A DNA stretch of 64,000 nucleotides, from the NCBI GenBank assembly GCA_035546595.1, contig DASZWO010000046.1, forward strand, positions 1,952-65,951, read 5' to 3'. The stretch is from Opitutaceae bacterium. GTDB lineage: Bacteria; Verrucomicrobiota; Verrucomicrobiia; Opitutales; Opitutaceae. This document shows, piece by piece, positions 13,401 to 32,901 of the stretch (position 1 is the stretch's first letter; every line of letters starts with the position of its first letter). Position numbers and translations under genes: made by a program. The notes beneath the pieces were generated by a model. The model was not told the origin of the DNA. It worked only from the letters and a program-made list of their open reading frames with translations, and did not search any database.

Positions 13401-15524
13401 ATGCCGGACCAAAGTGGAGCCTGGCGCCGCTGGCTCGCCCCCGGATCCATCGCGCTCGCGGTGGCCGGCGCTTATGCGAACAGCGGCCGGGGGGTGTTCC
13501 TCCTCGACGACTTCGCCTCGATCGGGCTCAACCCCACGATCCGGCGCCTCGGCGCCCTCGGGACGGTCCTGCGGCCGCCCGCCGAGGGCTTCACCGTCAC
13601 CGCCCGGCCGGTGCTCAACCTCTCGCTCGCGATCGACTATGCGCTGGGCGGCGATTCACCCGGGATCTACCACGCCACCAACGCCCTGATCCACCTCGGG
13701 GCGGCCCTGGCCCTTTTCGGGATCGCCCGCCGGACGCTGGGGCGGTGGCGGCCGGAGGCCGCGGGCCTCGGCGCCTGGGCGTTGGCCCTGCTCTGGGCGG
13801 TGCATCCGCTCCAGACGGAGTCGGTGACCTACGTCATCCAGCGGGCGGAGTCGCTGATGGGTCTCTTCTACCTGCTCACCCTCTATGGCCTCGTCCGCGG
13901 CTGGCTCGGCGCCTCGGTGCTCGCCTGCCTGCTGGGCATGGGGACCAAGGAGGTCATGGTGTCGGCCCCGCTGGTCATGCTGCTCTACGACCGGACGTTT
14001 CTGGCCGGTAGCTTCCGCGAGGCCTGGCGCCGCCGCCGCTCCTACTACCTCCTGCTGGCGGCGACCTGGGCGCCGCTGATCTGGCTGGCGGCGGCGGCCG
14101 GCGGCAGCCGCGGCCACACCTCCGGTTTCGGCGCGGGCGTGGCGCCCTGGACGTATTGGATGACGCAGGGGGAGGCGGTGCTGGCCTACCTGCGGCTGGC
14201 GCTCTGGCCGGCGCCGCTGGTTTTCGACTACGGCTCGGTCCGGATCCACCAGCCGGCGGCGCTGGCCGGCGGCGCGCTCGCGCTGGCCGCGGCCGGAGCG
14301 ACCGTCTGGGCCCTCGTCCGCGCCCCGCGGCTGGGCTTCCGGGAGAGGGCGCTCGGCTTCGCCGGCGCCTGCTTCTTCGCGATCCTCGCCCCCACCTCGC
14401 TCGTCCCCGGGCCGGTGCAGCGGATCGCCGAGCACCGGATGTACCTGCCGCTGGCGGCCGTCCTGGCGGCGGTCCTGATCGGCGCCGGCGCGCTGCTGCC
14501 GCGGATCTCTCGGAAGGCGGCCGCCGCCGCGGTGGCGGCGTGGGCCCTCGCGCTGGGGGCGGCGACCTTCGCGCGGAACGCGGTTTACGCCTCGGAGGTC
14601 GGCCTTTGGCGGGACACGGCCGCGGAGGAGCCGGCCGAAGCGCGGCCGCGTTTCTGGCTGGGCAATGCCCTGCTCAAGGCCGGCCGGTACGGCGAGGCCG
14701 CCGGCGAGCTGGAGGCGGCGCTGCGCCTCCAGCCGCGCTACGTCGACGCGCAGGAGGCCCTGGCGACCGCCGACTACCATCTGGGCCGGCGCGAGCAGGC
14801 CGCGGCGGGCTACCGGCGGGTGCTGGACTGGAATCCGGGCTACGCCGAGGCCCAGGACAACCTGGGGCTGCTGGCCGAAGAGGACGGCCGCTGGTCGGAG
14901 GCGGCGGGGCGGTTTGAGGAGGCGCTGCGGCTGCAGCCGCGCTGGGCCGACGCGCGCGCCCATCTGGCCGGCGCCCTGGCGCGGCAGGGCAACGAGGCCT
15001 TCCGGCGGGGCGGGGCGGCCGCGGCGGCGGAGGCCTACCGTCGGGCGCTCGCCCTGGATCCCGGCGACCCCGAGGTGCACGTCGACCTCGGGCTCGCGCT
15101 TTCGGCGGCCGGGCGGCTGGCCGAGGCGCAGGGGGAATTCGAGGCGGCGCTGCGGCTGCGGCCGGACGACGGCCCGGCGCACTACAACCTGGCCAACAGC
15201 CTGGCGCAGGCGGGGCGCCTCGGGGAGGCCGCGCCGCACTACCAGGCGGCGCTGCGCGCCGACCCGGGCAACGCCGCGGCCCGGATCAACCTCGGCAACT
15301 GCCTCTTCCAGCTCGGACGCACGCCGGAGGCGATCGCGCAGTACGAGGCGGCCCTTCCGCTCCAGCCCGGCAACGCACGGCTCCATTTCGACCTGGCCAA
15401 CGCCCTGGCCGCCGCCGGGCGGCTGGCCGGGGCGCGCGCGCACTACGGCGAGGCGCTGCGCCTGCGGCCGGACTTCGCCGCGGCGCGCGCGATGCTGGAC
15501 CGCCTGGGAGGCGCCGCGCCATGA
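13401..15524 (+). CDS. Polytopic GT-C-like (TMTC/PMT-like) membrane domain + C-terminal TPR array, paralog 1 of 5
   Basis: Motifs FLLDDFASIGLNPTIRRLG, ARPVLNLSLAIDYA, YHATNALIHLGAAL, HPLQTESVTYVIQRAESLMGLFYLL, GMGTKEVMVSAPLVMLLYDRTF, AEHRMYLPLA, followed by 34-residue TPR repeats. Confidence 0.8.
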   Translation: MPDQSGAWRRWLAPGSIALAVAGAYANSGRGVFLLDDFASIGLNPTIRRLGALGTVLRPPAEGFTVTARPVLNLSLAIDYALGGDSPGIYHATNALIHLGAALALFGIARRTLGRWRPEAAGLGAWALALLWAVHPLQTESVTYVIQRAESLMGLFYLLTLYGLVRGWLGASVLACLLGMGTKEVMVSAPLVMLLYDRTFLAGSFREAWRRRRSYYLLLAATWAPLIWLAAAAGGSRGHTSGFGAGVAPWTYWMTQGEAVLAYLRLALWPAPLVFDYGSVRIHQPAALAGGALALAAAGATVWALVRAPRLGFRERALGFAGACFFAILAPTSLVPGPVQRIAEHRMYLPLAAVLAAVLIGAGALLPRISRKAAAAAVAAWALALGAATFARNAVYASEVGLWRDTAAEEPAEARPRFWLGNALLKAGRYGEAAGELEAALRLQPRYVDAQEALATADYHLGRREQAAAGYRRVLDWNPGYAEAQDNLGLLAEEDGRWSEAAGRFEEALRLQPRWADARAHLAGALARQGNEAFRRGGAAAAAEAYRRALALDPGDPEVHVDLGLALSAAGRLAEAQGEFEAALRLRPDDGPAHYNLANSLAQAGRLGEAAPHYQAALRADPGNAAARINLGNCLFQLGRTPEAIAQYEAALPLQPGNARLHFDLANALAAAGRLAGARAHYGEALRLRPDFAAARAMLDRLGGAAP

Positions 15525-17527
15525 AGCCGCGCCGGGGAGTCCTCCTCGCGGCGCTGGGCATCGTCCTGGCCACGGTCCTCGCCTACGCCGGCACCCTCGC
15601 GGCGCCGTTCGTCTTCGACGACATCCCCGCCATCGCGAACAACCCGACGATCCGGCGCCTGGGCGACCTGCGCCGGGTGCTCTCCCCCTCCGCCACCGAC
15701 GGCAGCGGCGTCAGCGGCCGGCCGGTCGTGAATCTTTCCCTCGCCCTGAACTACGCCGCCGGCGGGCTGTCGGTCCGCGGCTACCACGCGGCCAACCTCG
15801 CCATCCATCTCGGAGCGGCCCTGCTGCTCTTCGGCATCGTGCGCCGCACGGCGGAGCGGGCCGGGCGGCCCGACGCGCTGCTGCTGGGCGCCGCGGTGGC
15901 GGGAATCTGGGCGGCGCATCCGCTGCTGACCGAGTCGGTCAGCTGCGTCATCCAGCGGACCGAATCGCTGATGGGGTTCTTCTATCTCCTGACGGTGTAC
16001 GCCTTCGTCCGGGGCACCGCGGGCCCGCGGCGGGGCGCGTGGCTTCTCCTCTCCTGGGCGGCATGCCTGCTGGGCATGGGGACGAAGGAGGTCATGGTGT
16101 CCGCGCCCCTCATCGTGTTCCTGTTCGACCGCACCTTCGTGGCCGGGACGTTCCGCCGCGCCTGGTCGGAGCGGCGGGGCTATTACGTCCCGCTGGCGGC
16201 GACCTGGCTCCTGCTGGCCTGGCTGATGGCGGGCAACGGGGCGAGCCGGGGCGGATCGGTGGGTTTCGGCCACGGCATCGGCGTCTGGAGCTACGCCCTG
16301 ACCCAGTGCTGGGCCCTGGCGCACTACCTGCGCCTCTGCTTCTGGCCGCACCCGCTGGTCATCGACTACGGCACCGCGGTCGCGCCCGGCCTCGGCGCGG
16401 TTTGGCCTCAGGGGCTGCTGGTGCTCGCCCTGCTCGGCCTCACCGCCTGGGCCCTGGCGCGGCGTCCGGTCGCCGGGTTCCTGGGCGCTTGGTGCTTCGC
16501 GATCCTGGCGCCCAGCTCGAGCTTCGTCCCCCTCGTCACGCAGACCGCCGCCGAGCACCGCATGTATCTGCCCCTGGCGGGGGTGGTCGCGCTGGTGGTC
16601 CTGGGCGTCGCCGGGCCGGCCCGCACCCTTCTGGCGCCGCCGCTGCGGATCGCGGGCGCCCTTGGCCTGGTCGCCGGGCTGGCCTTCGCCACCTGGGAGC
16701 GCAACCTCGACTACCGCACGGAGCATGCGATCTGGGCCCAGGCGGTCCGGGCATACCCAAGCAACGCGCGGGCGCACTACAACCTCGGGACCACCCTCGA
16801 GCACGCCGGCGCCCGGGGTGAGGCGGAGGCCCAGTACCGGGAGGCGATCCGCCTCAAGCCCGACTACGCCGACCCGCGCAACAACCTGGGGGAGCAGCTC
16901 CTCGGCGAGGGCCGCGTCGCCGAGGCCGAGGCTGAATTCCGGGCGGCGCTGCGGCTGCAGCCGGCCAACGCCCAGATCGCATACAACCTGGGCAACGCCC
17001 TGATCCAGGCGGGGCGTCCCGACGAGGCGATCCGCTTCCTGGAGGGCGCGCTGAAGCTGAGGCCCGCCTATGCCGAGGCGGAAAGCAACCTGGGCGTCGC
17101 CTATTCGCTGCTCGGCCGCTACCAGGACGCCCGACTGCACTACGCGGCCTCGCTGCGGATCGACCCGCGCTATGAGGTGGCCCATTTCGACTTGGGCAAC
17201 GTCCTGGCGCACCTCGGAGACATGCCCGCGGCGGCGGCGGAGTACGAGGCCGCGCTCCGTCTCAACCCGGGCGACGCCCGCGCCCGCGTCAACCTGGGCA
17301 ACGCCCTCGTGCAGCTCGGCCGGCCCGACGAGGCCCTGGCCCATTTCCAGGCGGCGATCCGGACCGACCCGCGCAGCGCCGCGGCGCACTTCAGCTTGGG
17401 GAGCCTTTATGTCCAGTCCGGCCGTTACGCGGAGGCCCGGGCCGAATTCGAGGCCGCGCTGCGGCTGAACCCCGGGCTCCAGCCCGCCCGCGACCTGCTC
17501 GAGCGCCTGCATGCCCTCCGACCCTGA
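15521..17527 (+). CDS. GT-C-like membrane domain + TPR array, paralog 2 of 5
   Basis: Same motif set (FVFDDIPAIANNPTIRRLG, HPLLTESVSCVIQRTESLMGFFYLL, GMGTKEVMVSAPLIVFLFDRTF, AEHRMYLPLA). The ATG overlaps the paralog 1 stop (ATGA at 15521-15524). Confidence 0.8.
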   Translation: MKPRRGVLLAALGIVLATVLAYAGTLAAPFVFDDIPAIANNPTIRRLGDLRRVLSPSATDGSGVSGRPVVNLSLALNYAAGGLSVRGYHAANLAIHLGAALLLFGIVRRTAERAGRPDALLLGAAVAGIWAAHPLLTESVSCVIQRTESLMGFFYLLTVYAFVRGTAGPRRGAWLLLSWAACLLGMGTKEVMVSAPLIVFLFDRTFVAGTFRRAWSERRGYYVPLAATWLLLAWLMAGNGASRGGSVGFGHGIGVWSYALTQCWALAHYLRLCFWPHPLVIDYGTAVAPGLGAVWPQGLLVLALLGLTAWALARRPVAGFLGAWCFAILAPSSSFVPLVTQTAAEHRMYLPLAGVVALVVLGVAGPARTLLAPPLRIAGALGLVAGLAFATWERNLDYRTEHAIWAQAVRAYPSNARAHYNLGTTLEHAGARGEAEAQYREAIRLKPDYADPRNNLGEQLLGEGRVAEAEAEFRAALRLQPANAQIAYNLGNALIQAGRPDEAIRFLEGALKLRPAYAEAESNLGVAYSLLGRYQDARLHYAASLRIDPRYEVAHFDLGNVLAHLGDMPAAAAEYEAALRLNPGDARARVNLGNALVQLGRPDEALAHFQAAIRTDPRSAAAHFSLGSLYVQSGRYAEARAEFEAALRLNPGLQPARDLLERLHALRP

Positions 17528-19451
17528 CAGCGCCGGCAGGCTGACGCCGAGTCGGTCCGCCGCCATCCTGGTCCTGGCCGTGGCCCTGGCCTACGCCGGG
17601 AGCTTCGCCGCGCCCTTCGTCTTCGACGCCTCGCCGATCGCGACCGCCTATCCCACGATCCGCCACCTCTGGCCGCTGACCCGCTCGCTGAGCCCGCCGC
17701 ATGACGGCTCGACCATCGAGGGGCGCCCCCTGCTGAACTTCTCGCTGGCGCTCAGCTACGCGCTCAGCGGCACCCGGGTCTGGGGCTATCACCTGCTGAA
17801 CCTGCTCATCCATCTCGGGGCCTGCCTGGCGCTCTTCGGGATCGTGCGGCGCACGCTGGGGCTCCGCGGCCGAGGCGGCGCGACGGCGACCGCCCTGGTG
17901 GCGGCCCTGGGGTGGGGCCTGCACCCGCTCCAGACCGAGTCGGTGACCTACGTCATCCAGCGGGCCGAATCGCAGATGGGGCTCTGCCTGCTGCTGACGC
18001 TCTACGGGTTCATCCGCGGGGCGGACCGGGACCGGCCGCTTCCCTGGTATTCCTTCTCCGTGGGCTGCTGCCTCGCGGGCATGGCGTCCAAGGAGGTCAT
18101 GGCGGTGGCCCCGGTCCTGGTCCTGCTCTACGACCGGACTTTCCTCGCCGGGAGCTTCCGCGCCGCCTGGCGCAGCCGCCGGGGCTATTACGCGGCGCTG
18201 GGCGCCACCTGGATCCTGCTCGGCGCCCTGGTGCTCGGCTCGCACAGCCGCAACGGCACCGCCGGCTTCGGCAGCGCGGTTCCCTGGGGCAGGTACGCGC
18301 TCACGCAGGTCTACGCCCTCGCGCACTACCTCCGCCTGGCGCTGTGGCCGCGGCCGCTGGTGTTCGACTACGGCGTCCTTCTGGTCGGCGATCCCCGGGT
18401 CCTGGCGGCGTCGGCCCTCGTCCTGGCGCTGCTGCTCGCCGCGGCGGCGGGGCTGGCGTCTCGCCGGGAGGCGCCGCGGGCCGCCGGCTTTCTGGCCGCC
18501 TGGTTCCTTCTCCCCCTCGCTCCGACCTCGCTCGTCCCCATTGCCACCGAGACCGTCGCGGAGCACCGTCTCTACGTCTCGCTCGCGGCGGTGGCGGTCG
18601 CCGCCGCCCTGGCGCTGCGGCGGATCTGCGGCGCCAGGCGGGGAGTGTTCCTCGCGGCCGGCGCCGCCGCCGCCCTCGGCCTCGGGGCCCTCACCCTCCA
18701 GCGCAATCGGATCTACCGGAGCGAGGAGCGCCTCTGGGCCGACACCGTCGCCAAGCGGCCGGACAATCCCCGCGCCCGGGTCCAGTACGGCTCGGTGCTC
18801 TTCAAGGCCGGGCGGATCGACCCGGCGGCGGCGCAGTTCCGGCGCGCCCTCGAGCTCGAACCGGCCAACTTCTGGGCGCACTACGACCTCGGCCAGTGCC
18901 TCTACCAGCGGGGGCGGTTCCGCGAAGCCATCGCGGAATTCGGGCTGGCGGTCCGGATCCTGCCGGAGAACGTGGACGCCCGCGGCGAACTGGGCAGCGC
19001 GCTGCTGCGGGCCGGCGATCCGGCGGACGCCGCTTCCCAGTACGAGCAGGCCCTCCGGCTCGACCCCTCGCGGGGCGACATCCGCGGCAACCTGGCCCGG
19101 GCGCAGTACAACTGGGGCACCCTGCTGGCGGCCCGGCACGACCTGGCGGGCGCCATCGTCCACTTCGAGCAGGCGGTGCGATCCCAGCCCGACTATCCGG
19201 AGGCCGAGGACAATTGGGGCAACGCGCTGCTGGAGGAGGGGAGGACGGACGAGGCCGCCGCCCACCACCGGCGGGCCCTGGCGCTGCGGCCGGACTACCC
19301 CGAGGCCCACGCCAATCTCGGCCTGGCCCTCCTCCGGCAGGGCCGGATCGCGGAGGCGGCCCGGGAATACCGGGAGGCGCTGCGGCTGCGGCCGGACTAC
19401 CCGGAGGCCCGCGCCATGCTCGAGCGGATCCGGGAGGCCGGCCTGCGCTGA
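17511..19451 (+). CDS. GT-C-like membrane domain + TPR array, paralog 3 of 5
   Basis: Motifs FVFDASPIATAYPTIRHL, HPLQTESVTYVIQRAESQMGLCLLL, GMASKEVMAVAPVLVLLYDRTF, AEHRLYVSLA. Overlaps paralog 2 by 17 nt. Confidence 0.8.
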   Translation: MPSDPDSAGRLTPSRSAAILVLAVALAYAGSFAAPFVFDASPIATAYPTIRHLWPLTRSLSPPHDGSTIEGRPLLNFSLALSYALSGTRVWGYHLLNLLIHLGACLALFGIVRRTLGLRGRGGATATALVAALGWGLHPLQTESVTYVIQRAESQMGLCLLLTLYGFIRGADRDRPLPWYSFSVGCCLAGMASKEVMAVAPVLVLLYDRTFLAGSFRAAWRSRRGYYAALGATWILLGALVLGSHSRNGTAGFGSAVPWGRYALTQVYALAHYLRLALWPRPLVFDYGVLLVGDPRVLAASALVLALLLAAAAGLASRREAPRAAGFLAAWFLLPLAPTSLVPIATETVAEHRLYVSLAAVAVAAALALRRICGARRGVFLAAGAAAALGLGALTLQRNRIYRSEERLWADTVAKRPDNPRARVQYGSVLFKAGRIDPAAAQFRRALELEPANFWAHYDLGQCLYQRGRFREAIAEFGLAVRILPENVDARGELGSALLRAGDPADAASQYEQALRLDPSRGDIRGNLARAQYNWGTLLAARHDLAGAIVHFEQAVRSQPDYPEAEDNWGNALLEEGRTDEAAAHHRRALALRPDYPEAHANLGLALLRQGRIAEAAREYREALRLRPDYPEARAMLERIREAGLR

Positions 19452-19489
19452 GTCTTGTCGTCGCGCCCGGGTCTTCCCATAACTCGCCG

Positions 19490-21184
19490 ATGCCGGAAAG
19501 AAACGCCGCGAGCCTGCCCTTTTGGATGGGCGCCGTCCTCGCCGCCGCGGTCCTGGCGGCGTACGCCGGCACCCTGGGGGAGCCGCTGCTCTTCGAATCC
19601 GCGTCGGTCCTGGCCGACAATCCCACGCTCCGGCAGCTCGGCGCCGCCCTGCGGCCGCCCCACGACGGCTCGCCGGTGGAGGGCCGGCCCGTCCTCAACC
19701 TATCGCTCGCGCTCAACTATGCCGCCGGCGGCGCCGCGCCGGACGGCTACCACCTGGCCAACCTCGCGATCCACGCCCTGGCCGCGCTCGTCCTGTTCGG
19801 GATCGTGCGCCGGACGCTGGCCCGGTTCCCCGACGAGTTCGGCGGACGCGAGGGCGCCGTGCTGGCCGGCTGCGCCGCGCTCCTCTGGGCGGTCCATCCC
19901 CTGCAGACCGAGGCGGTGACCAATGTCATCCAGCGGGCCGAATCGCTCATGGGGCTTTTCTATCTGCTGACCCTCTACTGCTTCATCCGGGGCTGGCGGG
20001 GCCTCTCGGTCGCGGCCTGCCTCCTCGGCATGGGGACGAAGGAGGTCATGGTCTCCGCGCCGCTGATCGTGCTGCTCTACGACCGGACCTTCGTCGCCGG
20101 CACATTCCGGAGAGCCTGGTCCGAGCGGCGGGGCTACTACCTCGGGCTGGCCGCGACCTGGCTGCTCCTGGGCTGGCTCCTGGTCGGAGCGGGCAGCCGC
20201 CACGGGACCGCCGGCTTCGGGAGCGCGATCCGGTGGTTCGACTATCTGCGGACGCAGGCCTACGCCGTCACGCTCTACCTCGGGCTCGCGATCTGGCCCC
20301 ACCACCAGATCTTCGACTACGGCACCCGCCTCATCACCCGCTGGACGGTGGTGCTGCCCTCGGCCCTGGTGGTCCTGGCGGTGGTCGGCTTCACCGCGGC
20401 CAGCATCCTCGCGCCCGGGCGGCGCTGGCACTGGAAGGGCTTCCTCGGGGCCTGGTTCCTGGCGCTGCTCGCCCCGACCGCGCTGGTGCCGGTCGCGACC
20501 CAGACCCTGGCGGAGCACCGCATGTACCTCCCGCTTGCGGCCCTGGCGGTGGCGACGGTGCTGGTTTTGCGCAAGGTTTGCGGCCGCCGGTGGGAGGCGG
20601 TCGCGCTGGTCTCGGCGGCGGCCGCCGCCGGCCTGGGGGCCGCGACGGTCCAGCGCAACCGCGTCTACCGGAGCGAGGAGGCGCTCTGGTCGGACACGGT
20701 GGCCAAGATCCCCTACAACGAACGCGCGCACAACAACCTGGGCAACGCCCTATACCTGGAGGGGCGGGCGCGGGAAGCGGCGGCGGAGTATGAGCGCGCC
20801 CTCGAGCTCCAGCCGGAGGATAATCCCGAGGCGCAATACAACCTCGGCAACTGCCTCCTCCAGGAGGGCCGGCCGCAGGAGGCCGCGGCCCGCTTCCGCG
20901 AGGCCATCCGCCTGGCTCCGCTCAACCCGGACGCGCACAACCAGCTCGGCGACGCGCTGGCCCAGGCCGGCCGCCTGGACCAGGCCCGGGCCGAGTTCGA
21001 GCGGGCCGAGAGCCTGGATCCGGGCCGGGCCGAGCCCCATTACAACCTCGGCAACATCTGGGCGATGACGGGCCATCGCGACCGGGCCCTGGCGGAATAC
21101 CGCCGGGCGGCGGAGCTCGATCCCGGCTTCGCCGACGCCCGGGCCGCGCTGGAGCGTCTCCAGGCGGCGCCGGCGGGCCCCTGA
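19490..21184 (+). CDS. GT-C-like membrane domain + shorter TPR array, paralog 4 of 5
   Basis: ATG at 19490 inside track ORF 17912..21184 (MPERNAASLPFWMGAV...). Motifs LLFESASVLADNPTLRQLG, HPLQTEAVTNVIQRAESLMGLFYLL, GMGTKEVMVSAPLIVLLYDRTF, AEHRMYLPLA. Confidence 0.8.
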   Translation: MPERNAASLPFWMGAVLAAAVLAAYAGTLGEPLLFESASVLADNPTLRQLGAALRPPHDGSPVEGRPVLNLSLALNYAAGGAAPDGYHLANLAIHALAALVLFGIVRRTLARFPDEFGGREGAVLAGCAALLWAVHPLQTEAVTNVIQRAESLMGLFYLLTLYCFIRGWRGLSVAACLLGMGTKEVMVSAPLIVLLYDRTFVAGTFRRAWSERRGYYLGLAATWLLLGWLLVGAGSRHGTAGFGSAIRWFDYLRTQAYAVTLYLGLAIWPHHQIFDYGTRLITRWTVVLPSALVVLAVVGFTAASILAPGRRWHWKGFLGAWFLALLAPTALVPVATQTLAEHRMYLPLAALAVATVLVLRKVCGRRWEAVALVSAAAAAGLGAATVQRNRVYRSEEALWSDTVAKIPYNERAHNNLGNALYLEGRAREAAAEYERALELQPEDNPEAQYNLGNCLLQEGRPQEAAARFREAIRLAPLNPDAHNQLGDALAQAGRLDQARAEFERAESLDPGRAEPHYNLGNIWAMTGHRDRALAEYRRAAELDPGFADARAALERLQAAPAGP

Positions 21185-21186
21185 TC

Positions 21187-23145
21187 ATGGTCCGCCGCCT
21201 CCTGCGCCGCCTCCCGCCCGCCGCCTGGCGGGGCGGGGCCCTGATTTTCTTCGCCACCTTCGCGGCCTACTGGCCGGCATTCGGCGCCAAGCTGATCTGG
21301 AACGACGAGGACTACGTCACCAAGCCCGCGCTCACCTCGCTGCGGGGCCTGGCGCAGATCTGGCTCAAGGTCGGGGCCACGCAGCAGTACTATCCGCTGC
21401 TCCACACCGCCTTCTGGGTCCAGCACCGGCTCTGGGGAGACGCCCCGCTCGGCTATCACCTCGCGAACGTGCTGTTCCACGCGCTCTCCGCCTGCCTCTT
21501 CGCGGGCCTGCTGCGGCGGCTGGACCTGCCGGCCTTCGGCTGCTGGCTGGCGGGGCTGCTCTTCGCTCTCCATCCGATCTGCGTCGAATCGGTCGCCTGG
21601 GTCTCGGAGGAGAAAAACACCTTCTCGCTGATCTTCTACCTGCTGGCCGCGTGGGCGTACTTCGACTTTGACCGGGACCGGCGCGGCCGCCAGTACGCCG
21701 CGGCCTCGGGCCTCTTCCTCGCCTCGATCCTGAGCAAGAGCCTCAACGCCACGCTGCCGGGCGCCCTCCTGGTCGTCCTCTGGTGGCGGCGCGGGCGGCT
21801 GTCCTGGCGCCGCGATGTGGCGCCGCTCCTGCCCTGGATGGCCGCGGGGGCCGCCGACGGCCTCTTCACCGGGTGGGTCGAGAAGCACTTCCTCGGCGCC
21901 CAGGGCTCGCTCTTCGCCCTCGGCTTCCTGCAGCGGCTGCTCGTCGCCGGCCGCACCTTCTGGTTTTACCTCGGCAAGATCGTCTGGCCCTCGCCGCTGA
22001 TCTTCATCTATCCCAAATGGGCCCCCGACCCCGGGGTCTGGTGGCAGTGGCTGTTCCCGCTCGCGGCCCTGGGCCTGCTCGCCGCCCTCGCCGTCCTGGC
22101 CGCGCGTTCGCGGGCGCCGCTGGCGGCGGCCCTCTTCTTCGCCGGCTCCCTCTTCCCGACGTCGGGCTTCCTGACCGTCTTCGGCTTCCTCTTCTCCTTC
22201 GTCGCCGACCACTGGGCCTACCTGCCGAGCCTCGGAATCGTCGCGCTGGCGGCGGCCGGCTGGGAGCGCGCCACCCGGGGCGGGGCCCGCCGCCTCTGGC
22301 GCTGGGCCGTCCCGGCCGCCGTCCTGGCCGCCTTCTCCTGCCTGACCTGGCGACAGACGCGCCTCTACGCGGACGCCGAGACGCTGTACAATTCCATCCT
22401 CGCGCGCAATCCGGGCGCCTGGATGGCGCACATCAACCTCGGGATCATCCTGCACGAGCAGCGCCGCGACGCGGAGGCGCTGGCGCACGACCGCGAAGCG
22501 GTCCGGCTCGCTCCCGACTACCCGCAGGGGCACAACGACTTGGGAAACGCGCTGCTCACCGCCGGCAGGCCGGCGGAGGCGCTGGCGGAATACCGGCGGG
22601 CCATCGAGCTCTGGCCCGCCTATTCAACCGCGCGCATCAACCTAGGCAACGTCCTCCGCGACTCCGGGCACCTGGAGGAGGCGGTGTCCCAGTACCGGCT
22701 CGCGATCCAGGCCGACCCGGACTCGGCCCAGGCCTACAACAGCCTCGGCATCGCCTTCGGGCAGCTCCGCCGGCCGGAGGATTCGATCGAGGCGTTCCGC
22801 CACGCCCTGCGGCTCTACCCCGCGTATGCGCAGGCGCATTACGACCTGGCGGTGGAGTTCGACGCCCTGGGCCGGCCGGCGGAGGCGCTGCCGGAGTTCG
22901 CGGCCACGGTGGCGCTGGCCCCGAACTTCCTCGACGGCCAGAAGGGCTACGGCCTCGAGCTGGCGCGGCAGAAGCGCTACGCCGAGGCGCTGGAGCACTT
23001 CCAGGAGGCGGTCCGGATCGATCCCCGCGACGCCCAGGCCCAATACGCCCTCTCGCTCATGCTGCGGCTGGCGGGCCGGGAGGACGAGGCCCGCGCGCAC
23101 TACGGCGAGGCGATGCGGCTGCAGGGAAAACCCGCGGCCCGGTGA
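21187..23145 (+). CDS. GT-C-like membrane domain + TPR array, divergent paralog 5 of 5
   Basis: Same architecture with diverged motifs ([43 protein letters not shown]), followed by TPR repeats. Starts 2 nt after the paralog 4 stop. Confidence 0.75.
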
Positions 23146-23204: not shown

Positions 23205-23519
23205 ATGCTCCGCAAAGCCTTCGTCATGAGTGTGAACCCCGGCCAGGAGGCGGAATACGCCCAGCGTCACCAGCCGATCTGGCGGGAGCTGGCCGACGTC
23301 CTCAAGGCCCATGGGGTGCACCAGTACTCGATCTTCCTGCACCCGGAGACGCGCCAGCTCTTCGGGTACGTCGAGATTGAGGACGAGTCCCGGTGGGCCG
23401 CGATCGCCCGCACCGAGGTCTGCCGCCGCTGGTGGAAGCACATGAGCCCCATCATGCCGAGCAACCCGGACCACAGCCCGGTTTCCCACGACCTCCAGGA
23501 GGTCTTCCACCTCGACTGA
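23205..23519 (+). CDS. rhaM: L-rhamnose mutarotase
   Basis: 104 aa, [44 protein letters not shown]...[14 protein letters not shown]. By recollection it is near-colinear with E. coli RhaM (MIRKAFVMQVNP...NSPVSSELQEVFYL). Confidence 0.85.
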
Positions 23520-23531
23520 GAGGGCGGCGCC

Positions 23532-24011
23532 ATGCGCCTCATCCACGAGTCCCAGGTCCCGATCGAGCGGCGCCAGTCGCCGCGGGGCGCCTTCGAGCTG
23601 ACCCGGCAGCACATCTCGCTGGCGCTCGGCGGGGTGAAGGACAAGGGACCCTGGGGCGGCGGCCATCCCTTCGACGTCGAGCGGGTGGTGCTGGCGCCGG
23701 GGAAGAAGAATTACCCCTACCACTCCCATGCGGCCCAGACGGAGCATTACATCATCGTCGCCGGGCGGGGAAAGGCGGTGGACGGCGGGGGCCAGCTGCA
23801 TCCGATCCGCGCCGGCGACCACCTCATCTGCCCGCCCGGGGAGGCGCACCAGCTGGTGAACGACTCCGAGGGGCCGCTGGAGTATTTCGTCATCGCCGAC
23901 CACCATCCCGCGGATGTGACCACCTATCCGAAGACCGGGAAGCGGCAGCTCAAGCCCGAGGGCCGGCTCGTGCGGCTGCAGGACGCGGACTACTACGAGG
24001 GCGAGGAGTAG
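23532..24011 (+). CDS. Cupin-domain protein
   Basis: Cupin motifs YHSHAAQTEHYIIVAGRG and GDHLICPPGEAHQLVN; 159 aa. Confidence 0.75.
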   Translation: MRLIHESQVPIERRQSPRGAFELTRQHISLALGGVKDKGPWGGGHPFDVERVVLAPGKKNYPYHSHAAQTEHYIIVAGRGKAVDGGGQLHPIRAGDHLICPPGEAHQLVNDSEGPLEYFVIADHHPADVTTYPKTGKRQLKPEGRLVRLQDADYYEGEE

Positions 24012-24076: not shown

Positions 24077-24153
24077 CGGACGCTTAGCTCAGTTGGTTAG
24101 AGCACGTGCTTCACACGCACGGGGTCACTGGTTCGAGTCCAGTAGCGTCCACC
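24077..24153 (+). tRNA. tRNA-Val (anticodon CAC), with encoded CCA
   Basis: Cloverleaf folded by hand. Acceptor stem GGACGCT/AGCGTCC, D stem GCTC/GAGC, anticodon stem CGTGC/GCACG with loop TTCACAC, T stem ACTGG/CCAGT with loop TTCGAGT, discriminator A, then CCA. Confidence 0.9.
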
Positions 24154-24154
24154 A
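24124..24154 (+). repeat. attL core: 31-bp direct repeat (3' part of the intact tRNA-Val)
   Basis: TCACTGGTTCGAGTCCAGTAGCGTCCACCAT, identical to 32998..33028. Confidence 0.9.
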
Positions 24155-24191
24155 TGTTGGAAGAGAATAAGTTAGGAAAAATAATTTCATC

Positions 24192-24214
24192 AGTCTCAGC
24201 ACCTAGTCTCAGCA
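24192..24214 (+). repeat. Two direct copies of AGTCTCAGCA (candidate integrase arm-type sites, attL side)
   Basis: AGTCTCAGCA at 24192-24201 and 24205-24214. The same 10-mer occurs twice near attR in the same orientation. Confidence 0.6.
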
Positions 24215-24541
24215 AGCCCACTCTTGTTCCTGCTGTTCGCTGATGATGTTCATCGGCACGAGGTACCCGGCGACGGTGCCCGCTTTGGGATCAATGTTGA
24301 AGGGACCCCAAATTTTCCCGCAGTAGCGATCCGGACCGTTTGGAAGGATTCGCTTCAAATCTTCAGCGCGCACAATGACAGTCGGTCCGGACTTGCAGAT
24401 GAATTTGGCTTCCCTCAATCGCTGATCGGATAGAACGGACTTGTGCATGTCCGTCCGCCACACGGGTCCGGCCATTTTCCACGGGACGTTTCGTTCCCAA
24501 CGCCCGTTGGTTATTATCGCGCGTGAAGTCACTGTGGACAC
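24209..24541 (-). CDS. Hypothetical protein (island cargo)
   Basis: 110-aa ORF, last gene of the relaxase-side operon. No family recognised. Confidence 0.5.
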   Translation of the reverse strand: MSTVTSRAIITNGRWERNVPWKMAGPVWRTDMHKSVLSDQRLREAKFICKSGPTVIVRAEDLKRILPNGPDRYCGKIWGPFNIDPKAGTVAGYLVPMNIISEQQEQEWAC

Positions 24542-24599
24542 GGGCTCCCGCGGCTCAGCCGGCGACCCGCGGCCATCGCTCTGACGATTTTCGGCTCCG

Positions 24600-24959
24600 T
24601 CAAATAATCCATGGTGCAGGTTCGCCGGCGAATGTGATCGTCATGCTTTCGTACTGATCGGAGCTGTCCTCAAGGTGCATCTCCAATCCATTTTCGAGTT
24701 CAATTGTGATCAGGCGATCGCCGACAATCTGGCATCGGACAGCCTTCACATTCATGATGTCGTAGAATCCAGCGTCCGGCCACCGACCTTCCTCCCAGGC
24801 GGCAATCAGTGTGCCGGCGCGAAAGAGCTTTACTGGCGATTCAATGGCGAAATTGACGCGACCGAATGTAAATTGGAGGTCGAACTGACCGACACGGACT
24901 TGCGTCGTGAATTCACCAACGACTGGAGAAAGGTCGAGGTGTTTGGGTATCCGGTACAT
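24600..24959 (-). CDS. Small hypothetical protein, immunity-protein-like (DUF6188-like by recollection)
   Basis: 119 aa. Alternating beta-strand-like pattern (FDLQFTFGRVNFAIESPVKLF...LITIELENGLEMHLEDSSDQYESMTITF). No signal peptide. Confidence 0.55.
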   Translation of the reverse strand: MYRIPKHLDLSPVVGEFTTQVRVGQFDLQFTFGRVNFAIESPVKLFRAGTLIAAWEEGRWPDAGFYDIMNVKAVRCQIVGDRLITIELENGLEMHLEDSSDQYESMTITFAGEPAPWII

Positions 24960-24980
24960 TTTGTCGAGTGGGAGTGGGAG

Positions 24981-25604
24981 CTACGCCGCGCGATGAACTG
25001 AAAGGCCGCCGGGAGGCAGGCCGAGTGCTCGCCACGCGGTTCTGATGTTATCTAGTTTTTCGTCGGTGCTGGAATGGGTCAGCACGTAAAACTGCGTTCC
25101 GGGGAGTTGCTGATGCTGATAGGTGAGGCCGCTCTTTGAATTGCGGTAGTCAACCTCCGGCTTCGCGGAGACGAGAGGGCCCCTGTTTACACGAACTTGG
25201 GCCAATCGTTCCAAGGTTTCCGGGCCGCGCGCGGCGACCAGCTCGGCGACGAACGCGACGAGCGTTTCGGACGCCTTCGCTTCGCAAACGACGGCTCTCG
25301 GACGCGCAATGCCGCAAGCGGCCCAATCGAGGGTCGCCTGCAATTCTCCCCGGCGACCCGACGGTTCAAAGGGAAACGACTGCGCGGCTGGCGCGTGCGG
25401 TTGGATCGAATCTGCGCCGCGATCGACTGCGGCATTGAGGTCGGTCAGTTCCGTAGTCAACGACGTCAAATGAAGGTCGATCTCTTTTGCCCTTTTCGCG
25501 ATTCGGGAAAGGCGTTCGATTTCCGAAACATCAGCGCGCCGTGAGGCTTCCTGGATAAGCTTCATCGTCTTGGCCAAGATATCGCCCGGTGTCATTGAGT
25601 TCAT
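24981..25604 (-). CDS. Hypothetical protein (island cargo)
   Basis: The ATG at 25604 (MNSMTPGDIL...) is preferred over the track start at 25673. N-terminal helical or coiled region. No family recognised. Confidence 0.5.
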   Translation of the reverse strand: MNSMTPGDILAKTMKLIQEASRRADVSEIERLSRIAKRAKEIDLHLTSLTTELTDLNAAVDRGADSIQPHAPAAQSFPFEPSGRRGELQATLDWAACGIARPRAVVCEAKASETLVAFVAELVAARGPETLERLAQVRVNRGPLVSAKPEVDYRNSKSGLTYQHQQLPGTQFYVLTHSSTDEKLDNIRTAWRALGLPPGGLSVHRAA

Positions 25605-25697
25605 TTGGACATACTGGGTACTACTTAATACCAAGTAAAGACAGATGATCCAAAGTAACTCGCTGATTACCAATCGCGACGTACGTCGGGTGCGCGA

Positions 25698-26045
25698 TCA
25701 CTGCTCTGACTGCTGAACCACAATTCTTGTAACGAAAGGCTCCCCTGGGTCCGCCAGCGCCCCATAGTCCGGCGGCAATTCCCGGAGCGTTTCGAGGTGA
25801 AACTGTCTGATGTCACCGAGCAGCTTTGGCAGATTGCGACCTTGAATTTCAATTCGCTCGTCCGCGAACGTTAGCACGAGCTTTTCGCGGTCGAAATGGT
25901 AGCGGCTGAATCGAGCCCAGGCGAAACCCAGTGACTCGCCGTTTGCCAACTCAATCGAGAGTGTCGCCGTCGAGTGACCTCCGGTGTAGCAGCGGTAACG
26001 CGGGTCGGGCCTGCGGAGCGGGGCCGATTGTTGAGAAAGGCTCAT
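25698..26045 (-). CDS. Hypothetical protein translationally coupled to the relaxase
   Basis: The ATG overlaps the relaxase stop (ATGA on the minus strand at 26045-26042). 115 aa, no family recognised. Confidence 0.55.
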   Translation of the reverse strand: MSLSQQSAPLRRPDPRYRCYTGGHSTATLSIELANGESLGFAWARFSRYHFDREKLVLTFADERIEIQGRNLPKLLGDIRQFHLETLRELPPDYGALADPGEPFVTRIVVQQSEQ

Positions 26046-28795
26046 ATCCGCATCCCCCGTCGCTCGCCGTAGTGTTCTCGTTGTTCGATGAATTGGCGCA
26101 TTCGGGCGAGGTCGATCATTTCAGCGACGCGACGGGAACAGCCGGGGATGCGCATCATCTGGGTCGTCTCGGCGCCCGCCACGTCTATCGCTAACTCGCG
26201 CTCGCTGCTGCGCTGGATATTCAGGCGTAGGCTTTCCTTGTTTGGTGTGAGTACGACGACCCGCTTCCGCCCGCGCGAAATGCCGACGTACCATTGCTGC
26301 GCGCTCGTGGCGGCGCGAATGCCGGCGTCGGCGACGATGACGGTGTCCACCGTCTTCCCCTGGGACGAATACGAGGTGACGGCGTACCCCCGGACAAAAA
26401 GGCGCTGCGAGTGAGCGAGTGTTTTGGTCTCCCCTCGTTCATCGGCGACTACCAACGTACCCGATGGTTCGATGCGCGCCACTGTCACCAGCTCGCCATT
26501 GCGCAGTTTCGCGCCTTCCACGCTCCGCCCGTTCACTTTGAGTTGTACCCGGTCGCCCGGTGATAGCTCCATTTCGACTGCTTTCGCGACCGTGAATCGG
26601 TTCGCGTAACGATAGCTCATGGTCGAACGCCGACCGTCTTTCACCAGGACCACGCCGTGCTTGTCCGCCCCGGCGATTTCGTACAACTCGCCCTTCTTGA
26701 AACGACCGTAGCCTTTCAGGAATGCTGCCCAGTGGCCTTGCTCATAAAATCGGGGGTCGCATCTCTGCGATTCATCCCGGTCCACCGGCTGGAAAGCAGA
26801 GATGCACACTCCATCTGCCAATTGCCCGTTGGCCCGCAACGCCGCGCGGATGGCATCGTTTACGGCGTGGACTTCGCTCCACGTCTGGGCGACGACGAGC
26901 GGGCGCTCGCCTCTGGCCAAGGCCGTCAGGTACTCCCCGGCTATCGCTTCCCGCCTGGGTTCGTCCGGGAGTTCGCGGACGCAGCCCATCTTTTCTAGGC
27001 GATCAAACGATTCGACGATTTTCCCGTCCGCCGCGTCTTTCACGGCGGTGCGATATTGACGGATGAAGCGCCGTTCGTCGATTGATCGGGCTAGGCGTGG
27101 GTCCTGGCGCCGGATAGTCCGAAGGGTCGCCATCCGTGGACGGGAATGCTTTTCGATAGCCCGAAGTGCGTCAGACGCCGCCACCGCCCCGTGTTGGCGG
27201 GTATCGCCGGACAGGATCAACCGGCTGTCGTGCGCTTTCACCAACCGAATCAATTCGCGCAACTCACGACCGCCGACTTGGCCCGCCTCGTCCAAAATAA
27301 CGACTGCGCGGGGCGGCAGCCGGCGGACGGCCAAGGCGTGGGTCAGCGTTTGGGCAGGCAGTCCGTCTCTCTCCAGATCGTGCGCCTGCTGGCGCTGCGG
27401 GGCGAGCACCACGACCGGATGCCCTGCTTTCGTGAGACCGCGTTGGATTTCAGCGATCGTCCGAGTCTTTCCGGTGCCGGCACCGCCTCGGAACAGTGTG
27501 ACAAAGTCTTCGCTTGCCAGAATCCGACGTGCTGCCCGGGCCTGTTCCTCCGACAGCGCGGAGTCCGGCACGTAGTCGCAGTTGAATCCGACGAAGCAGT
27601 TCCGGCCGTCGCGTACCGAGAGCACGATTTCGAGTTCGTAGCCAAGCAGTTCCCGGGAAGTCAGCTTCCGGCTCCCCTCCTGGCGCACGTACCCGCGTTC
27701 CGCCACGGCCCGGCTGAGGGCGGCCAAGTCGAAATCCTGGCCGCGACCGCGAGCGAGCGCCGCCGACATCAGCTCAAAGTCGTTCACGATTGCCCTCCGT
27801 TCGAACAGGTGGCCCTCGGCCCAGGTCACGGCCGCGCGTACGTCTACCGTCTCTCGCTGCGCCTCGGCGGGGTCCTGAAGCCTCTGTAGTGCGTCCCTTT
27901 CGTTGGCTTCGAGCTGGGACCGCCAATAGGATCTGAGTTCGTCGGCGGTCGCATTCTTGACCTTGCGGCGCCGATGCTCGTGCGCGATTCGGCTCCGCAG
28001 CTCACCTACGTCGCCGGAATAACCTTCGGCGATTTGGCGCTCCGCCTCGGCCGCGATCTGATCGTGTCGCTTCGAAAACCGGGCGATGACGCCAGCCGGG
28101 ACACCCTTGATCTCGAAGTCCCGGGCGTTGTTCTCGATCTGGTACCCGAGCCCGCAAAGCCCCTTGGCCAGTTCGTGGTAGTACAGATTTTCCGCGAATT
28201 TCTGAGCGCGGTACATGCCCTCCGTTTGCAGGGCCTTCCATCGACCCTCAACCGGATCGAACGTCGCGTTAAAGACGACGCAATGCGTGTGCAAATGCGG
28301 GTCCAATTCCCGACTGGTGTCATGGCGGAAGCATGCAGCGACCAGATTGCCAGTGACGTGGGAGTCATTCCGCTTCGACCGCCGGACCCGCGTTTCCGCC
28401 ATCTTCTCCAGTTCCACCAGTGCCGTGCGCACCGCTCTCTCATGCAATTCGACGATCCGGTTGTCTTGACAAAGCCCGACGACGGAGACGCTCTTCGGCG
28501 GACTGATCGTGAAATCGTGGAAGATGCGCCGGTTCGCGGCTTGTCGGCCGTCCTCCCATCGAACGGAATTCAGTCGCTGCGTCAGTCGGGTTCCGCTTTG
28601 CGGATTCAGACCATCGCAAAGTGCCAGGAAGTCTCTCTCGCCGACCTTCCCTAAAAGCCCCAGCATTTCGGCTGCACGTCCGATCCATTCGCCGGTGACC
28701 TGCTGGCCTTCCGAGTAATAGTCGCCGACGCAAAGGTGCTCGCGAAAGTATTCGCGGGCATTCTGCAGGTTTAGTTGAGGCTTCGGCCTGAGCAT
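26042..28795 (-). CDS. MOBF-family conjugative relaxase (TrwC/TraI-like) fused to an AAA/UvrD-like helicase
   Basis: N-terminal TrwC-type region (YFREHLCVGDYYSEG, HDTSRELDPHLHTHCVVFN 3-His motif). Walker A GGAGTGKT, Walker B VVILDEAGQV. 917 aa. Confidence 0.9.
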   Translation of the reverse strand: MLRPKPQLNLQNAREYFREHLCVGDYYSEGQQVTGEWIGRAAEMLGLLGKVGERDFLALCDGLNPQSGTRLTQRLNSVRWEDGRQAANRRIFHDFTISPPKSVSVVGLCQDNRIVELHERAVRTALVELEKMAETRVRRSKRNDSHVTGNLVAACFRHDTSRELDPHLHTHCVVFNATFDPVEGRWKALQTEGMYRAQKFAENLYYHELAKGLCGLGYQIENNARDFEIKGVPAGVIARFSKRHDQIAAEAERQIAEGYSGDVGELRSRIAHEHRRRKVKNATADELRSYWRSQLEANERDALQRLQDPAEAQRETVDVRAAVTWAEGHLFERRAIVNDFELMSAALARGRGQDFDLAALSRAVAERGYVRQEGSRKLTSRELLGYELEIVLSVRDGRNCFVGFNCDYVPDSALSEEQARAARRILASEDFVTLFRGGAGTGKTRTIAEIQRGLTKAGHPVVVLAPQRQQAHDLERDGLPAQTLTHALAVRRLPPRAVVILDEAGQVGGRELRELIRLVKAHDSRLILSGDTRQHGAVAASDALRAIEKHSRPRMATLRTIRRQDPRLARSIDERRFIRQYRTAVKDAADGKIVESFDRLEKMGCVRELPDEPRREAIAGEYLTALARGERPLVVAQTWSEVHAVNDAIRAALRANGQLADGVCISAFQPVDRDESQRCDPRFYEQGHWAAFLKGYGRFKKGELYEIAGADKHGVVLVKDGRRSTMSYRYANRFTVAKAVEMELSPGDRVQLKVNGRSVEGAKLRNGELVTVARIEPSGTLVVADERGETKTLAHSQRLFVRGYAVTSYSSQGKTVDTVIVADAGIRAATSAQQWYVGISRGRKRVVVLTPNKESLRLNIQRSSERELAIDVAGAETTQMMRIPGCSRRVAEMIDLARMRQFIEQREHYGERRGMRI

Positions 28796-28848
28796 TGGCA
28801 GAAATCGCGCAAGTGTCGCAATTGAGTCCGACTTCGCGTGTCACCATG

Positions 28849-28865
28849 GGAACGCTCCGCGTTCC
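28849..28865. promoter_or_regulatory. Inverted repeat GGAACGC-tcc-GCGTTCC upstream of the relaxase gene (oriT/operator candidate)
   Basis: Perfect 7-bp arms, read directly from the sequence, 54-70 nt upstream of the relaxase start codon. Confidence 0.3.
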
Positions 28866-28962
28866 ATTTTCTCGGGCAGACGCATTACCCCTTGCCGGAT
28901 CGGCAATGAATCCGACCCATCAATACGGCATCCATGAACATCGCTGACAGCAGGCAGATTCG

Positions 28963-28993
28963 CCGTCGGACAGCACTTGCAAAAGTCCGACGG
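28963..28993. promoter_or_regulatory. Inverted repeat CCGTCGGAC-N13-GTCCGACGG (oriT/operator candidate)
   Basis: Perfect 9-bp arms with a 13-nt loop, in the 235-bp gap between the Xis-like and relaxase genes. Confidence 0.35.
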
Positions 28994-29030
28994 ACTTCGG
29001 GTCTGCCGCCAAACTCTCGATTTCGGTGAT

Positions 29031-29321
29031 TCACGACGCGGGCGTGATAGTCTCAGCGGAGCGCCGGATATAGTCCAAGACAGAGTCGAGAACTACCAAG
29101 CGGATGCCGCGCAGTGCGCCTCGCTGGCGCACCGCGACCATTTTGATTTCGCCCGCAGCTGCGGCCTTGTAGTACCATCCGCGTGAGAGGCCGAAGTACG
29201 GGTCGCGTTTGCCTGGCTGCGGCAAGCGGTAGAACTCGGCTCGGGCAGTCGGATGGATCGCATTGATTGAGAATTCAGGTGGATTCATTGTCGGGTCCTT
29301 TTGTTGATACTGCGTCATCAA
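29031..29321 (-). CDS. Small DNA-binding protein, excisionase/AlpA-like (putative Xis)
   Basis: 96 aa. Segment FGLSRGWYYKAAAAGEIKMVAVRQRGALRGIRLVVLDSVLDYI resembles the HTH/winged-helix Xis-type proteins found next to island integrases and relaxases. Assignment is by recollection. Confidence 0.55.
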   Translation of the reverse strand: MMTQYQQKDPTMNPPEFSINAIHPTARAEFYRLPQPGKRDPYFGLSRGWYYKAAAAGEIKMVAVRQRGALRGIRLVVLDSVLDYIRRSAETITPAS

Positions 29322-29487
29322 TGCGACATCGCTTTGGGGCGGACGAGAGCGTCTGCATACCCAAAAAAGGGCAGGCGTATTACCTTTTTTGGCGTAGCCC
29401 CGTCGCGGAGTCGTGGCAGCGGCCGCTATGCGGCTGAAGGGGCGCCCAGTGGCGCGCCGTCATTCCGACCGTGTGTCGTGGTGAACG

Positions 29488-30294: not shown

Positions 30295-30523
30295 TGGCGC
30301 GGACGCTCAATACCTCGTCGTCCCTGAGCGCCTCGACGGCTTTCGCCGCAACGGCGACCACGGCAAGAGTCTGTCCTTTTGCCCCGAGGACTTCGGCTGA
30401 GTATCCTTCTTCGCCGTCGGGGGCCACATGATGCTCCACCAACCGCAGCAAGTCGCCGCGACGAAGCCGATATTCCGGCAGATCGCGGGCGAGAGCTACA
30501 TCAGTGTACAGAGGGAACGTCAT
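30284..30523 (-). CDS. DUF4926-like small protein
   Basis: 79 aa. The pattern VALARDLPEYRLRRGDLLRLVEHH...YSAEVLGAKGQTLAVVAV fits my recollection of DUF4926. The ATG overlaps the upstream stop (ATGA at 30523-30520). Confidence 0.65.
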   Translation of the reverse strand: MTFPLYTDVALARDLPEYRLRRGDLLRLVEHHVAPDGEEGYSAEVLGAKGQTLAVVAVAAKAVEALRDDEVLSVRAIAV

Positions 30524-31304: not shown

Positions 31305-31311
31305 GGCGGCG

Positions 31312-31710: not shown

Positions 31711-31738
31711 TGGTTCTCCGCTTCCCAAGTAGAGCGGG

Positions 31739-32896: not shown

Positions 32897-32901
32897 GATT
32901 C

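Follow-up and report, generated by a model that had tools for sequence, protein, structure and literature searches.

Five consecutive genes in a 64-kb window of DNA from an Opitutaceae bacterium (assembly GCA_035546595.1, contig DASZWO010000046.1, positions 1,952 to 65,951; G+C ~71%) encode proteins that are, with high confidence, glycosyltransferase C (GT-C) enzymes homologous to the animal TMTC1-4 proteins. The explanation that we favor for the whole array, held with somewhat better than even confidence, is that these are inner-membrane glycosyltransferases of the GT-C_A type that would use a lipid-linked donor to modify an envelope-protein acceptor. The window denotes here the entire 64-kb stretch that was analyzed. 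The five open reading frames (ORFs), named g1 to g5 in their order, are intact and co-directional on the plus strand at 13401-23145, and in each a membrane domain precedes a tetratricopeptide repeat (TPR) module:

13401-15524, + strand: g1, 707 aa; membrane domain ~aa 1-396 (13401-14588), TPR module ~aa 397-707, ~9 repeats
15521-17527, + strand: g2, 668 aa; membrane domain ~aa 1-398, TPR module ~270 aa, ~8 repeats
17511-19451, + strand: g3, 646 aa; membrane domain ~aa 1-402, TPR module ~244 aa, ~7 repeats
19490-21184, + strand: g4, 564 aa; membrane domain aa 1-393 with 11 transmembrane (TM) helices, short TPR module (171 aa, ~4 repeats plus cap)
21187-23145, + strand: g5, 652 aa; membrane domain aa 1-393, TPR module ~259 aa, ~7 repeats

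The ORF listing with translations agrees exactly with the original prediction, a reading of the bare sequence that had placed five head-to-tail ORFs of 564-707 aa at these coordinates, and the coordinates likewise yield the junctions it had given, namely a 4-nt overlap (g1/g2), a 17-nt overlap (g2/g3), a 38-nt gap (g3/g4) and a 2-nt gap (g4/g5). Its division of each product into a membrane half and a TPR array was borne out by strong C-terminal TPR matches in all five products (Pfam) and by the 11-helix domain described below. For g4 the start is an ATG (19490) within a longer open frame that spans 17912-21184; the other four genes are the ORFs as listed. Three deposited proteins from a metagenome-assembled Opitutaceae bacterium, P0040 (646 aa), P0001 (564 aa) and P0121 (652 aa), are 100% identical to g3, g4 and g5, and because their lengths are equal the starts of these three genes agree with the annotation. 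The tight spacing suggests co-transcription, and a single transcription unit of five genes is plausible; in a consensus scan, terminator-like sites within the array were no more numerous than in shuffled sequence, and a promoter scan was also at chance level.

Membrane-domain fold, homology to TMTC1-4 and topology

When the isolated N-terminal halves were searched with Pfam, g3 alone passed the gathering score of PMT_2 (PF13231; 34.4 bits vs 26.1), and g1, g2, g4 and g5 gave no match to this family. The same model was matched at E<=0.01 by the N-domains of 26 of 79 relatives, and many members of the large subfamily to which g5 belongs carry a precomputed PF13231 assignment. No MIR domain was matched by Pfam in any of the five proteins, and the N-domain found no PDB sequence even at E<=10, used either as a single sequence or as a 9-sequence profile. 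An AlphaFold2 model of full-length g4 built with 60 homologues (pLDDT 92.1, pTM 0.90) displayed a helical membrane bundle with 11 TM helices and, after it, a TPR solenoid. With this full-length model, Foldseek matched TPR proteins only (OGT, designed CTPRs and APC subunits) and did not inform on the membrane domain; because the matches were confined to the TPR part, the N-domain of g5 was modelled separately (pLDDT 89.4). With the g5 N-domain, ranks 1-22 were all GT-C enzymes (probability 0.85-1.0, TMq 0.37-0.54), including STT3 (OST-A and yeast OST), Pmt4, ArnT (5f15), PglB, AglB, AftD, EmbB, ALG3 and DPY19, and from rank 23 onward further GT-C entries were mixed with unrelated transporters (probability ~0.1, TMq ~0.15). 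The structure search that the original prediction had proposed as a check therefore returned, at high probability, GT-C enzymes only. The fold assignment extends to all five proteins because the two families, that of g1-g4 and that of g5, are homologous to one another (hhalign 100%, E=3e-47).

For the relation to TMTC1-4 we used the N-domain alignment that Eisenhaber et al. 2021 published as supplementary material (PMC7801869), taking the human and Drosophila rows (eight sequences). In BLASTP comparisons the human and fly TMTC N-domains matched g1-g5 with 31-75 bits (mostly 40-75, with g2 reaching 75), and the ArnT row matched nothing. A hidden Markov model (HMM) of the eight TMTC sequences matched all five proteins at E=5e-19 to 8e-27 (g1 5e-19, g2 1e-26, g3 8e-27). 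Profile-profile alignment against TMTC spanned the whole domain for 79 N-domains of the g1-g4 type (hhalign 99.9%, E=1.5e-34, 376 columns), and the g5 family aligned over 365 columns (99.3%, E=1.4e-20). An hhalign comparison with a single ArnT sequence was uninformative, since the TMTC profile itself fails there, and shows only that TMTC is much closer than ArnT.

The catalytic and donor-binding motifs described for TMTCs are DD, SHKSYRP, HP.HTE, KE and AER (PMC7801869), and the alignments can be followed through the extracytoplasmic loops (EL1 to EL5). For TMTC, EL1 holds FVFDD with the catalytic DD, and its SHKSYRPL stands opposite bacterial GRPvLNLS. In EL2 AVHPIHTEAV is paired with tlHPLQTEsV, in EL3, the loop with the Lys, CKE is paired with TKE, in EL4 L.(C/F)DW is paired with LVFDYG, and in EL5, the loop with the phosphate-binding Arg, VAERVLY.PS is paired with AEHRMYLPL.

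Helix boundaries of the g4 model were mapped onto all five proteins, and in 5/5 the cytoplasmic loops hold 17-20 Lys/Arg in 50-66 residues compared with 9-11 in ~140 residues for the periplasmic loops (for g1, 18 in 61 aa vs 11 in 141 aa). Eleven TM helices with the N terminus inside would leave the acidic motif of EL1 and the TPR array facing the periplasm, so that an N terminus in the cytoplasm, with EL1 and TPRs in the periplasm, is predicted for each protein. The original prediction had named topology as a point on which it could fail; the positive-inside counts place both features, by prediction, on the periplasmic side, and an equal arrangement has been deduced for TMTCs (PMC7801869).

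Paralogue divergence and turnover of the array

A tblastn search with the N-terminal 395 residues finds only these five loci in the window. The membrane domains of g1-g4 are 52-58% identical to one another (g1 to g2-g4, 54-56%), whereas g5 is only 26-30% identical to g1-g4. Judged by sequence, the array consists of four close paralogues and one member, g5, of a sister subfamily. The motifs follow the same division: GRPxLNLSLA, HPLQTE.V, GM.TKEVM and AEHRMY are present in g1-g4 only, and g5 carries its own versions, including ADHWAY in place of AEHRMY, so that the original claim of N-terminal motifs common to five paralogues holds for g1-g4 and fails for g5. The F-x-F-D-D motif from the same source is complete in g1 (LLDD) and g2 (FVFDD) and gives way to FDA in g3, FES in g4 (Glu-Ser at codons 36-37, window positions 19595-19600) and WNDED in g5 (WNDE at residues 38-41, 21301-21312). 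In g4 the change from Asp to Glu is a conservative one, and the two closest orthologues of g4, P0002 and P0004, keep it. In the g5 family W-N-D is invariant (D40), and hhalign aligns ND of this family to DD of TMTC and places D-H-W where TMTC has E-R-V.

Conservation across relatives falls on the same loops. The first acidic residue of EL1 is present in 60/60 relatives (Asp in 57, Glu in 3), and R66, P67, H136, P137, K184, E185, H343 and R344 are invariant among the 60; the second EL1 Asp is present in 36/60. The TPR modules of g1-g4 (311, 270, 244 and 171 aa) are 40-45% identical, as against 52-61% for the membrane domains, and this greater divergence would fit, without proving, specialized acceptor binding.

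Two short peptide patterns run over the GTDB species representatives gave at least 595 stretches, of which at least 581 were confirmed. The best 80 loci are mostly from Opitutaceae/Opitutales, but metagenome-assembled genomes (MAGs) that bear the labels Planctomycetaceae, Aggregatilineales, Thermoanaerobaculaceae and Myxococcales are also among them; up to five separate loci come from one MAG. The glpK-array-rhaM locus recurs in other Opitutaceae. Locus L001 (317-kb contig) has a divergent glpK, five type-A (g1-g4-like) genes, one type-B (g5-like) gene and rhaM, with the same 4-nt first overlap, L014 has six copies in the same order as L001, L002 and L064 have four copies each with a g5-type gene last, and L085, from a closer relative (82-85% identity), keeps g4-g5-rhaM. 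In a neighbor-joining tree g5 grouped with the terminal genes of the L014, L002 and L064 arrays (100% bootstrap) and g3 with the positional copies L001_4, L014_4 and L002_2 (89%); g2 and g4 formed a pair (67%), and g1 was placed without support. From these orthologous orders and tree groupings across loci, the array is old and closed by a type-B gene, and it evolves by birth and death of type-A copies. The synteny and phylogeny comparisons named in the original prediction thus revealed an order shared with L001 and L014 and a g5 orthologous to the terminal genes. Two copies in L001 (5929-7994 and 11703-13522) were each annotated in two pieces (140+551 aa and 323+264 aa), through either pseudogenization or long-read frameshift errors.

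The family is known, very large and already labelled, and tandem arrays in it are commonplace. A word-indexed search with the g4 N-domain gave at least 7,316 matches at E<=1e-5, many of them named "protein O-mannosyl-transferase" by JGI, and a search with the g5 subfamily gave 3,982; phmmer against 1.84 billion 50%-identity representatives returned 33,458 clusters at E<=1e-3 and 14,086 at E<=1e-10. Full-length prokaryotic homologues of TMTC were noted already by Eisenhaber et al. 2021 (PMC7801869), and 26/81 loci contain 2-7 N-domains within ±10 kb. The rarity implied by the original prediction is contradicted by the ~33,000 clusters, the JGI label, the 2021 mention and the frequency of tandem copies. 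Its further statement that no bacterial member has been characterized stands for this family, as the searched literature holds no characterized bacterial TMTC-like enzyme of it, and falls short in that the architectural analogue TfpW of Pseudomonas aeruginosa is a characterized bacterial GT-C/TPR protein. One relative, P0241 (1,270 aa, two complete GT-C/TPR modules), was considered as a natural fusion and rejected: its Arg/Ala/Gly-rich linker indicates read-through of tandem genes, the fusion would also be topologically inconsistent, and the idea of a hetero-oligomer was dropped.

Proposed function, rival explanations and genomic neighborhood

In the mechanism that we propose, each protein would begin in the cytoplasm, cross the membrane 11 times and end in a periplasmic TPR solenoid, with a putative active site at the periplasmic face built from EL1 (F-x-F-D/E and G-R-P), EL2 (HPLQTE), EL3 (TKE), EL4 (WP.PL.FDYG) and EL5 (AEHRMY). 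A polyprenyl-phosphate-linked donor, once flipped to the periplasm, would give up one sugar to an acceptor held by the TPRs, and the likeliest acceptor would be a hydroxyl group of Ser or Thr in an envelope protein that is exported. The paralogues would keep the catalytic domain and vary the length and sequence of the TPR module, and so probably serve different clients. What the analysis itself shows is the fold, the TMTC homology, the predicted topology, the conserved catalytic-loop residues and the conservation of the array; enzymatic activity, the lipid-linked donor, the sugar, the protein acceptor and the specialization for clients are all features that we infer. A protein acceptor is slightly to be preferred, by analogy, because the nearest sequence relatives, the TMTCs, and TfpW both modify proteins; the acceptors of TMTCs are cadherin domains. 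That the paralogues may differ in acceptor specificity, as the original prediction suggested, is a reasonable idea, and mannose as the transferred sugar is doubtful.

Several observations weigh against this proposal. The Foldseek E-values for the g5 N-domain are modest (5e-4 to 0.2), as is usual for the GT-C fold. The Pfam family TMTC_DUF1736, which covers EL4 (TM7-TM8), was matched by 0/79 N-domains at E<=0.01, the best score among the five being that of g3 (E=0.059, 13.8 bits vs a cut-off of 27), and the EL4 loop, which does align to TMTC by hhalign, lacks the DNP motif and has DY for DW. The second Asp of DD is absent in g3, g4 and g5, g4 has Glu for the first, and the g5 family has His/Trp at the site of the phosphate-binding Arg of TMTC EL5 (ADHWAY vs AERVLY), which could mean a different donor or a different chemistry in the type-B subfamily. 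Among the gene-like ORFs scanned in the window (some stretches, for example ~45.8-47.3 kb, fell outside the scan) there is no GT2, flippase, pilin, sugar-activation or obvious acceptor gene, and among 128 genes flanking the 80 loci no GT2, GtrA-like flippase, pilin or exosortase partner recurs. By their sequences, then, the five proteins share the TMTC architecture but miss some signatures of the animal family, and the original assignment of the N-terminal halves to the TMTC1-4 type of GT-C is upheld by the whole-domain alignments and not by the TMTC_DUF1736 signature.

The strongest rival keeps the same GT-C enzymes and gives them a glycan or lipid acceptor (lipid A or lipopolysaccharide core, capsule or exopolysaccharide, or peptidoglycan-linked polymers), in the manner of ArnT, Emb/Aft or GtrC-type three-component systems, with the TPRs docking to export machines as in BcsC, PgaA and AlgK. 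The structural neighbors ArnT, AftD and EmbB do act on lipid or polysaccharide, the TPR regions resemble BcsC, PgaA and PrsT at the generic TPR level, and Opitutaceae loci are rich in polysaccharide genes, with EpsH lying 6 kb from the L001 array. The likenesses to export TPR proteins, however, are far below family cut-offs (NCBIfam returned only sub-threshold, generic TPR likeness to PrsT, PilW, Tgl, MamA and BcsC, which we left uninterpreted), and no polysaccharide-synthesis or export gene recurs as a neighbor. The closest sequence relatives are by far the protein-modifying TMTCs rather than ArnT, and TfpW, the one characterized bacterial enzyme of this architecture, modifies a protein. We regard a glycan or lipid acceptor as possible but unlikely.

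A second rival holds that the proteins are catalytically inactive, membrane-anchored TPR scaffolds or chaperones in which the GT-C domain serves as an anchor or lipid-binding module. The departure of g3, g4 and g5 from the canonical DD, the missing EL5 Arg of the g5 family, the position of most copies below the PMT_2 threshold and the lack of a donor pathway nearby would suit such a role. Purifying conservation, however, falls exactly on the active-site residues of the periplasmic loops (the acidic residue in 60/60; R66, H136, K184, E185, H343 and R344), and the Asp-to-Glu change of g4 is conservative and kept in orthologues. Inactive scaffolds are thus very improbable, given the invariance of the active-site loops. 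That the array arose in assembly or binning, from a repeat that was collapsed or duplicated or from a chimeric contig, is conceivable for a metagenome-assembled genome, given that TPR genes with their many repeats can mislead assemblers. This reading can be set aside almost entirely, as the copies are deeply diverged (only 52-58% identical in protein, and 26-30% for g5) with all ORFs intact, which excludes the duplication that the original prediction had asked to be checked, and the glpK-array-rhaM order recurs in the independent assemblies L001, L014 and L085.

The array of putative glycosyltransferases is flanked in the window by the following features:

Upstream of the array: lysA-like decarboxylase gene, gpsA, LuxR-type response regulator gene, small coiled-coil ORF and glpK
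23205-23519: rhaM, downstream of the array, equivalog-level match
23532-24011: cupin gene, downstream of the array
24078-24154: tRNA-Val, downstream of the cupin gene
24078-33028: mobilizable element of 8.9 kb inserted in tRNA-Val, G+C 0.57-0.64 vs ~0.71
26042-28795, - strand: TrwC-type relaxase/helicase gene, in the mobilizable element
29488-30294, - strand: trypsin-like peptidase gene, in the mobilizable element
30852-31439, - strand: WapI-like immunity gene, in the mobilizable element
31739-32896, - strand: tyrosine integrase gene, in the mobilizable element
55318-59046: gene for a TonB-dependent receptor-like protein of 1,242 aa, in the carbohydrate-utilization region described below

The original prediction had correctly named rhaM and a cupin gene downstream and no GT2 or sugar-activation gene beside the array, and the scanned ORFs of the window gave no such gene; nor did they include a DprE-like gene. 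Reading glpK as a rhamnulokinase that ties the array to rhaM was ruled out, as the gene is a clear glycerol kinase. A perfect 31-nt direct repeat (24125-24155 and 32998-33028) marks the two ends of the mobilizable element. In L085 the insert found downstream of rhaM is a different one, which also bears an integrase. After the element follows a dense carbohydrate-utilization region (33563-61249) with glycoside hydrolase (GH) and regulator genes: GH28/pectate-lyase-like, GDSL esterase, LacI regulator, GH31, BNR/sortilin-like, two GH1, two GH2-type (one mannosidase-like), AXE1 esterase, AraC-type sugar-binding regulator and GH5-like. In L001, genes for an exosortase (EpsH) and for a weak-TPR protein occupy 17386-20656, ~6 kb downstream of the syntenic array; the matching position in the window gave no equivalent.

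Across the related loci the 128 flanking genes comprise 161 different Pfam families, the most frequent being the Plug domain of TonB-dependent receptors (11/128), whose gene is the one neighbor that recurs. With a local receptor HMM, receptor-like ORFs numbered 9/143 among adjacent ORFs and 4/393 further off (Fisher p=0.0014, on loci that are not independent). In 7-9 loci, several of which may be orthologous, the gene immediately upstream of the first TMTC-like gene (same strand, 190-420 nt away) encodes a receptor-like protein of ~1,000-1,260 aa:

Loci with a receptor gene upstream: L028, L039, L045, L058, L062, L065, L073, L082, L083

The array of the window itself is not next to a receptor gene, and we treat receptor adjacency as a lead, not a result.

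An extension of the proposed mechanism, which we consider a long shot, is that the array forms a TMTC-type battery, a bacterial counterpart of the domain-specific O-mannosylation of animals, in which each TPR array would pick another class of envelope protein, one client class being the large TonB-dependent outer-membrane receptors encoded upstream in related loci. If true, this would be the first protein-client-specific GT-C glycosylation network described in Gram-negatives, and it would account for the high copy numbers in Opitutaceae and other polysaccharide-degrading phyla. More generally, if envelope proteins are glycosylated by these enzymes, the family would represent a widespread, unstudied periplasmic route in Verrucomicrobiota, Planctomycetota, Acidobacteriota and Myxococcota and would give the human TMTCs, little-understood enzymes that are linked to brain malformation and deafness, a bacterial model that is tractable. 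The present locus is a clean, conserved example of a common tandem arrangement and no more tractable than thousands of others; what it usefully contributes is a direct link in sequence to TMTC, the 4+1 structure with a closing type-B gene and the receptor-adjacency lead.

Comparison with known systems

ArnT (GT83), a periplasm-facing GT-C enzyme that uses an undecaprenyl-phosphate sugar, is a structural neighbor of the array proteins (5f15) and has been reported as the best template for TMTCs (PMC7801869). Unlike the array proteins, to which it has no detectable sequence similarity, ArnT has 13 TM helices, no TPR array and a lipid acceptor. The PMT/POMT enzymes (GT39, including actinobacterial Pmt) share the GT-C_A fold, as seen in the structural matches to Pmt4 and Pmt1, and the acidic EL1 motif, and Pfam PMT_2 is matched by g3 and by 26/79 relatives. 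In contrast to them, the array proteins carry TPRs instead of a MIR beta-trefoil and have 11 TM helices, and most copies lie below the PMT_2 threshold.

TfpW of P. aeruginosa (646 aa) is a D-arabinofuranosyl (D-Araf) transferase for pilin and is needed for pilin glycosylation. Its N terminus is cytoplasmic, 11 TM helices are predicted, the TPR region at the C terminus is periplasmic, and the first periplasmic loop carries the GT-C motif DDX; reporter fusions give this topology partial support. ArnT is its best modelling template, and the enzyme uses a polyprenyl-phosphate donor and a protein acceptor. The array proteins resemble it in their 11 TM helices, periplasmic TPR domain and acidic EL1 motif, a likeness of architecture. 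The genomic settings differ, in that tfpW lies directly downstream of pilA and near genes for D-Araf synthesis, whereas the array lies beside glpK, rhaM and a cupin gene.

The closest counterpart remains TMTC1-4 of animals (CAZy GT105), with an 11-TM GT-C domain followed by non-cytoplasmic TPRs and with common motifs in EL1 (FVFDD; RP), EL2 (HP.(H/Q)TE.V), EL3 (KE) and EL5 (AE(H)R.Y). Identity is only ~22%, the second Asp of DD is variable in the bacterial proteins, and EL4 has GFG...FDYG where the animal proteins have DNP...DW. The bacterial enzymes would act in the periplasm rather than the endoplasmic reticulum, with a bacterial polyprenyl phosphate sugar as donor rather than dolichyl-phosphate mannose (Dol-P-Man), and the bacterial genomes hold many more paralogues.

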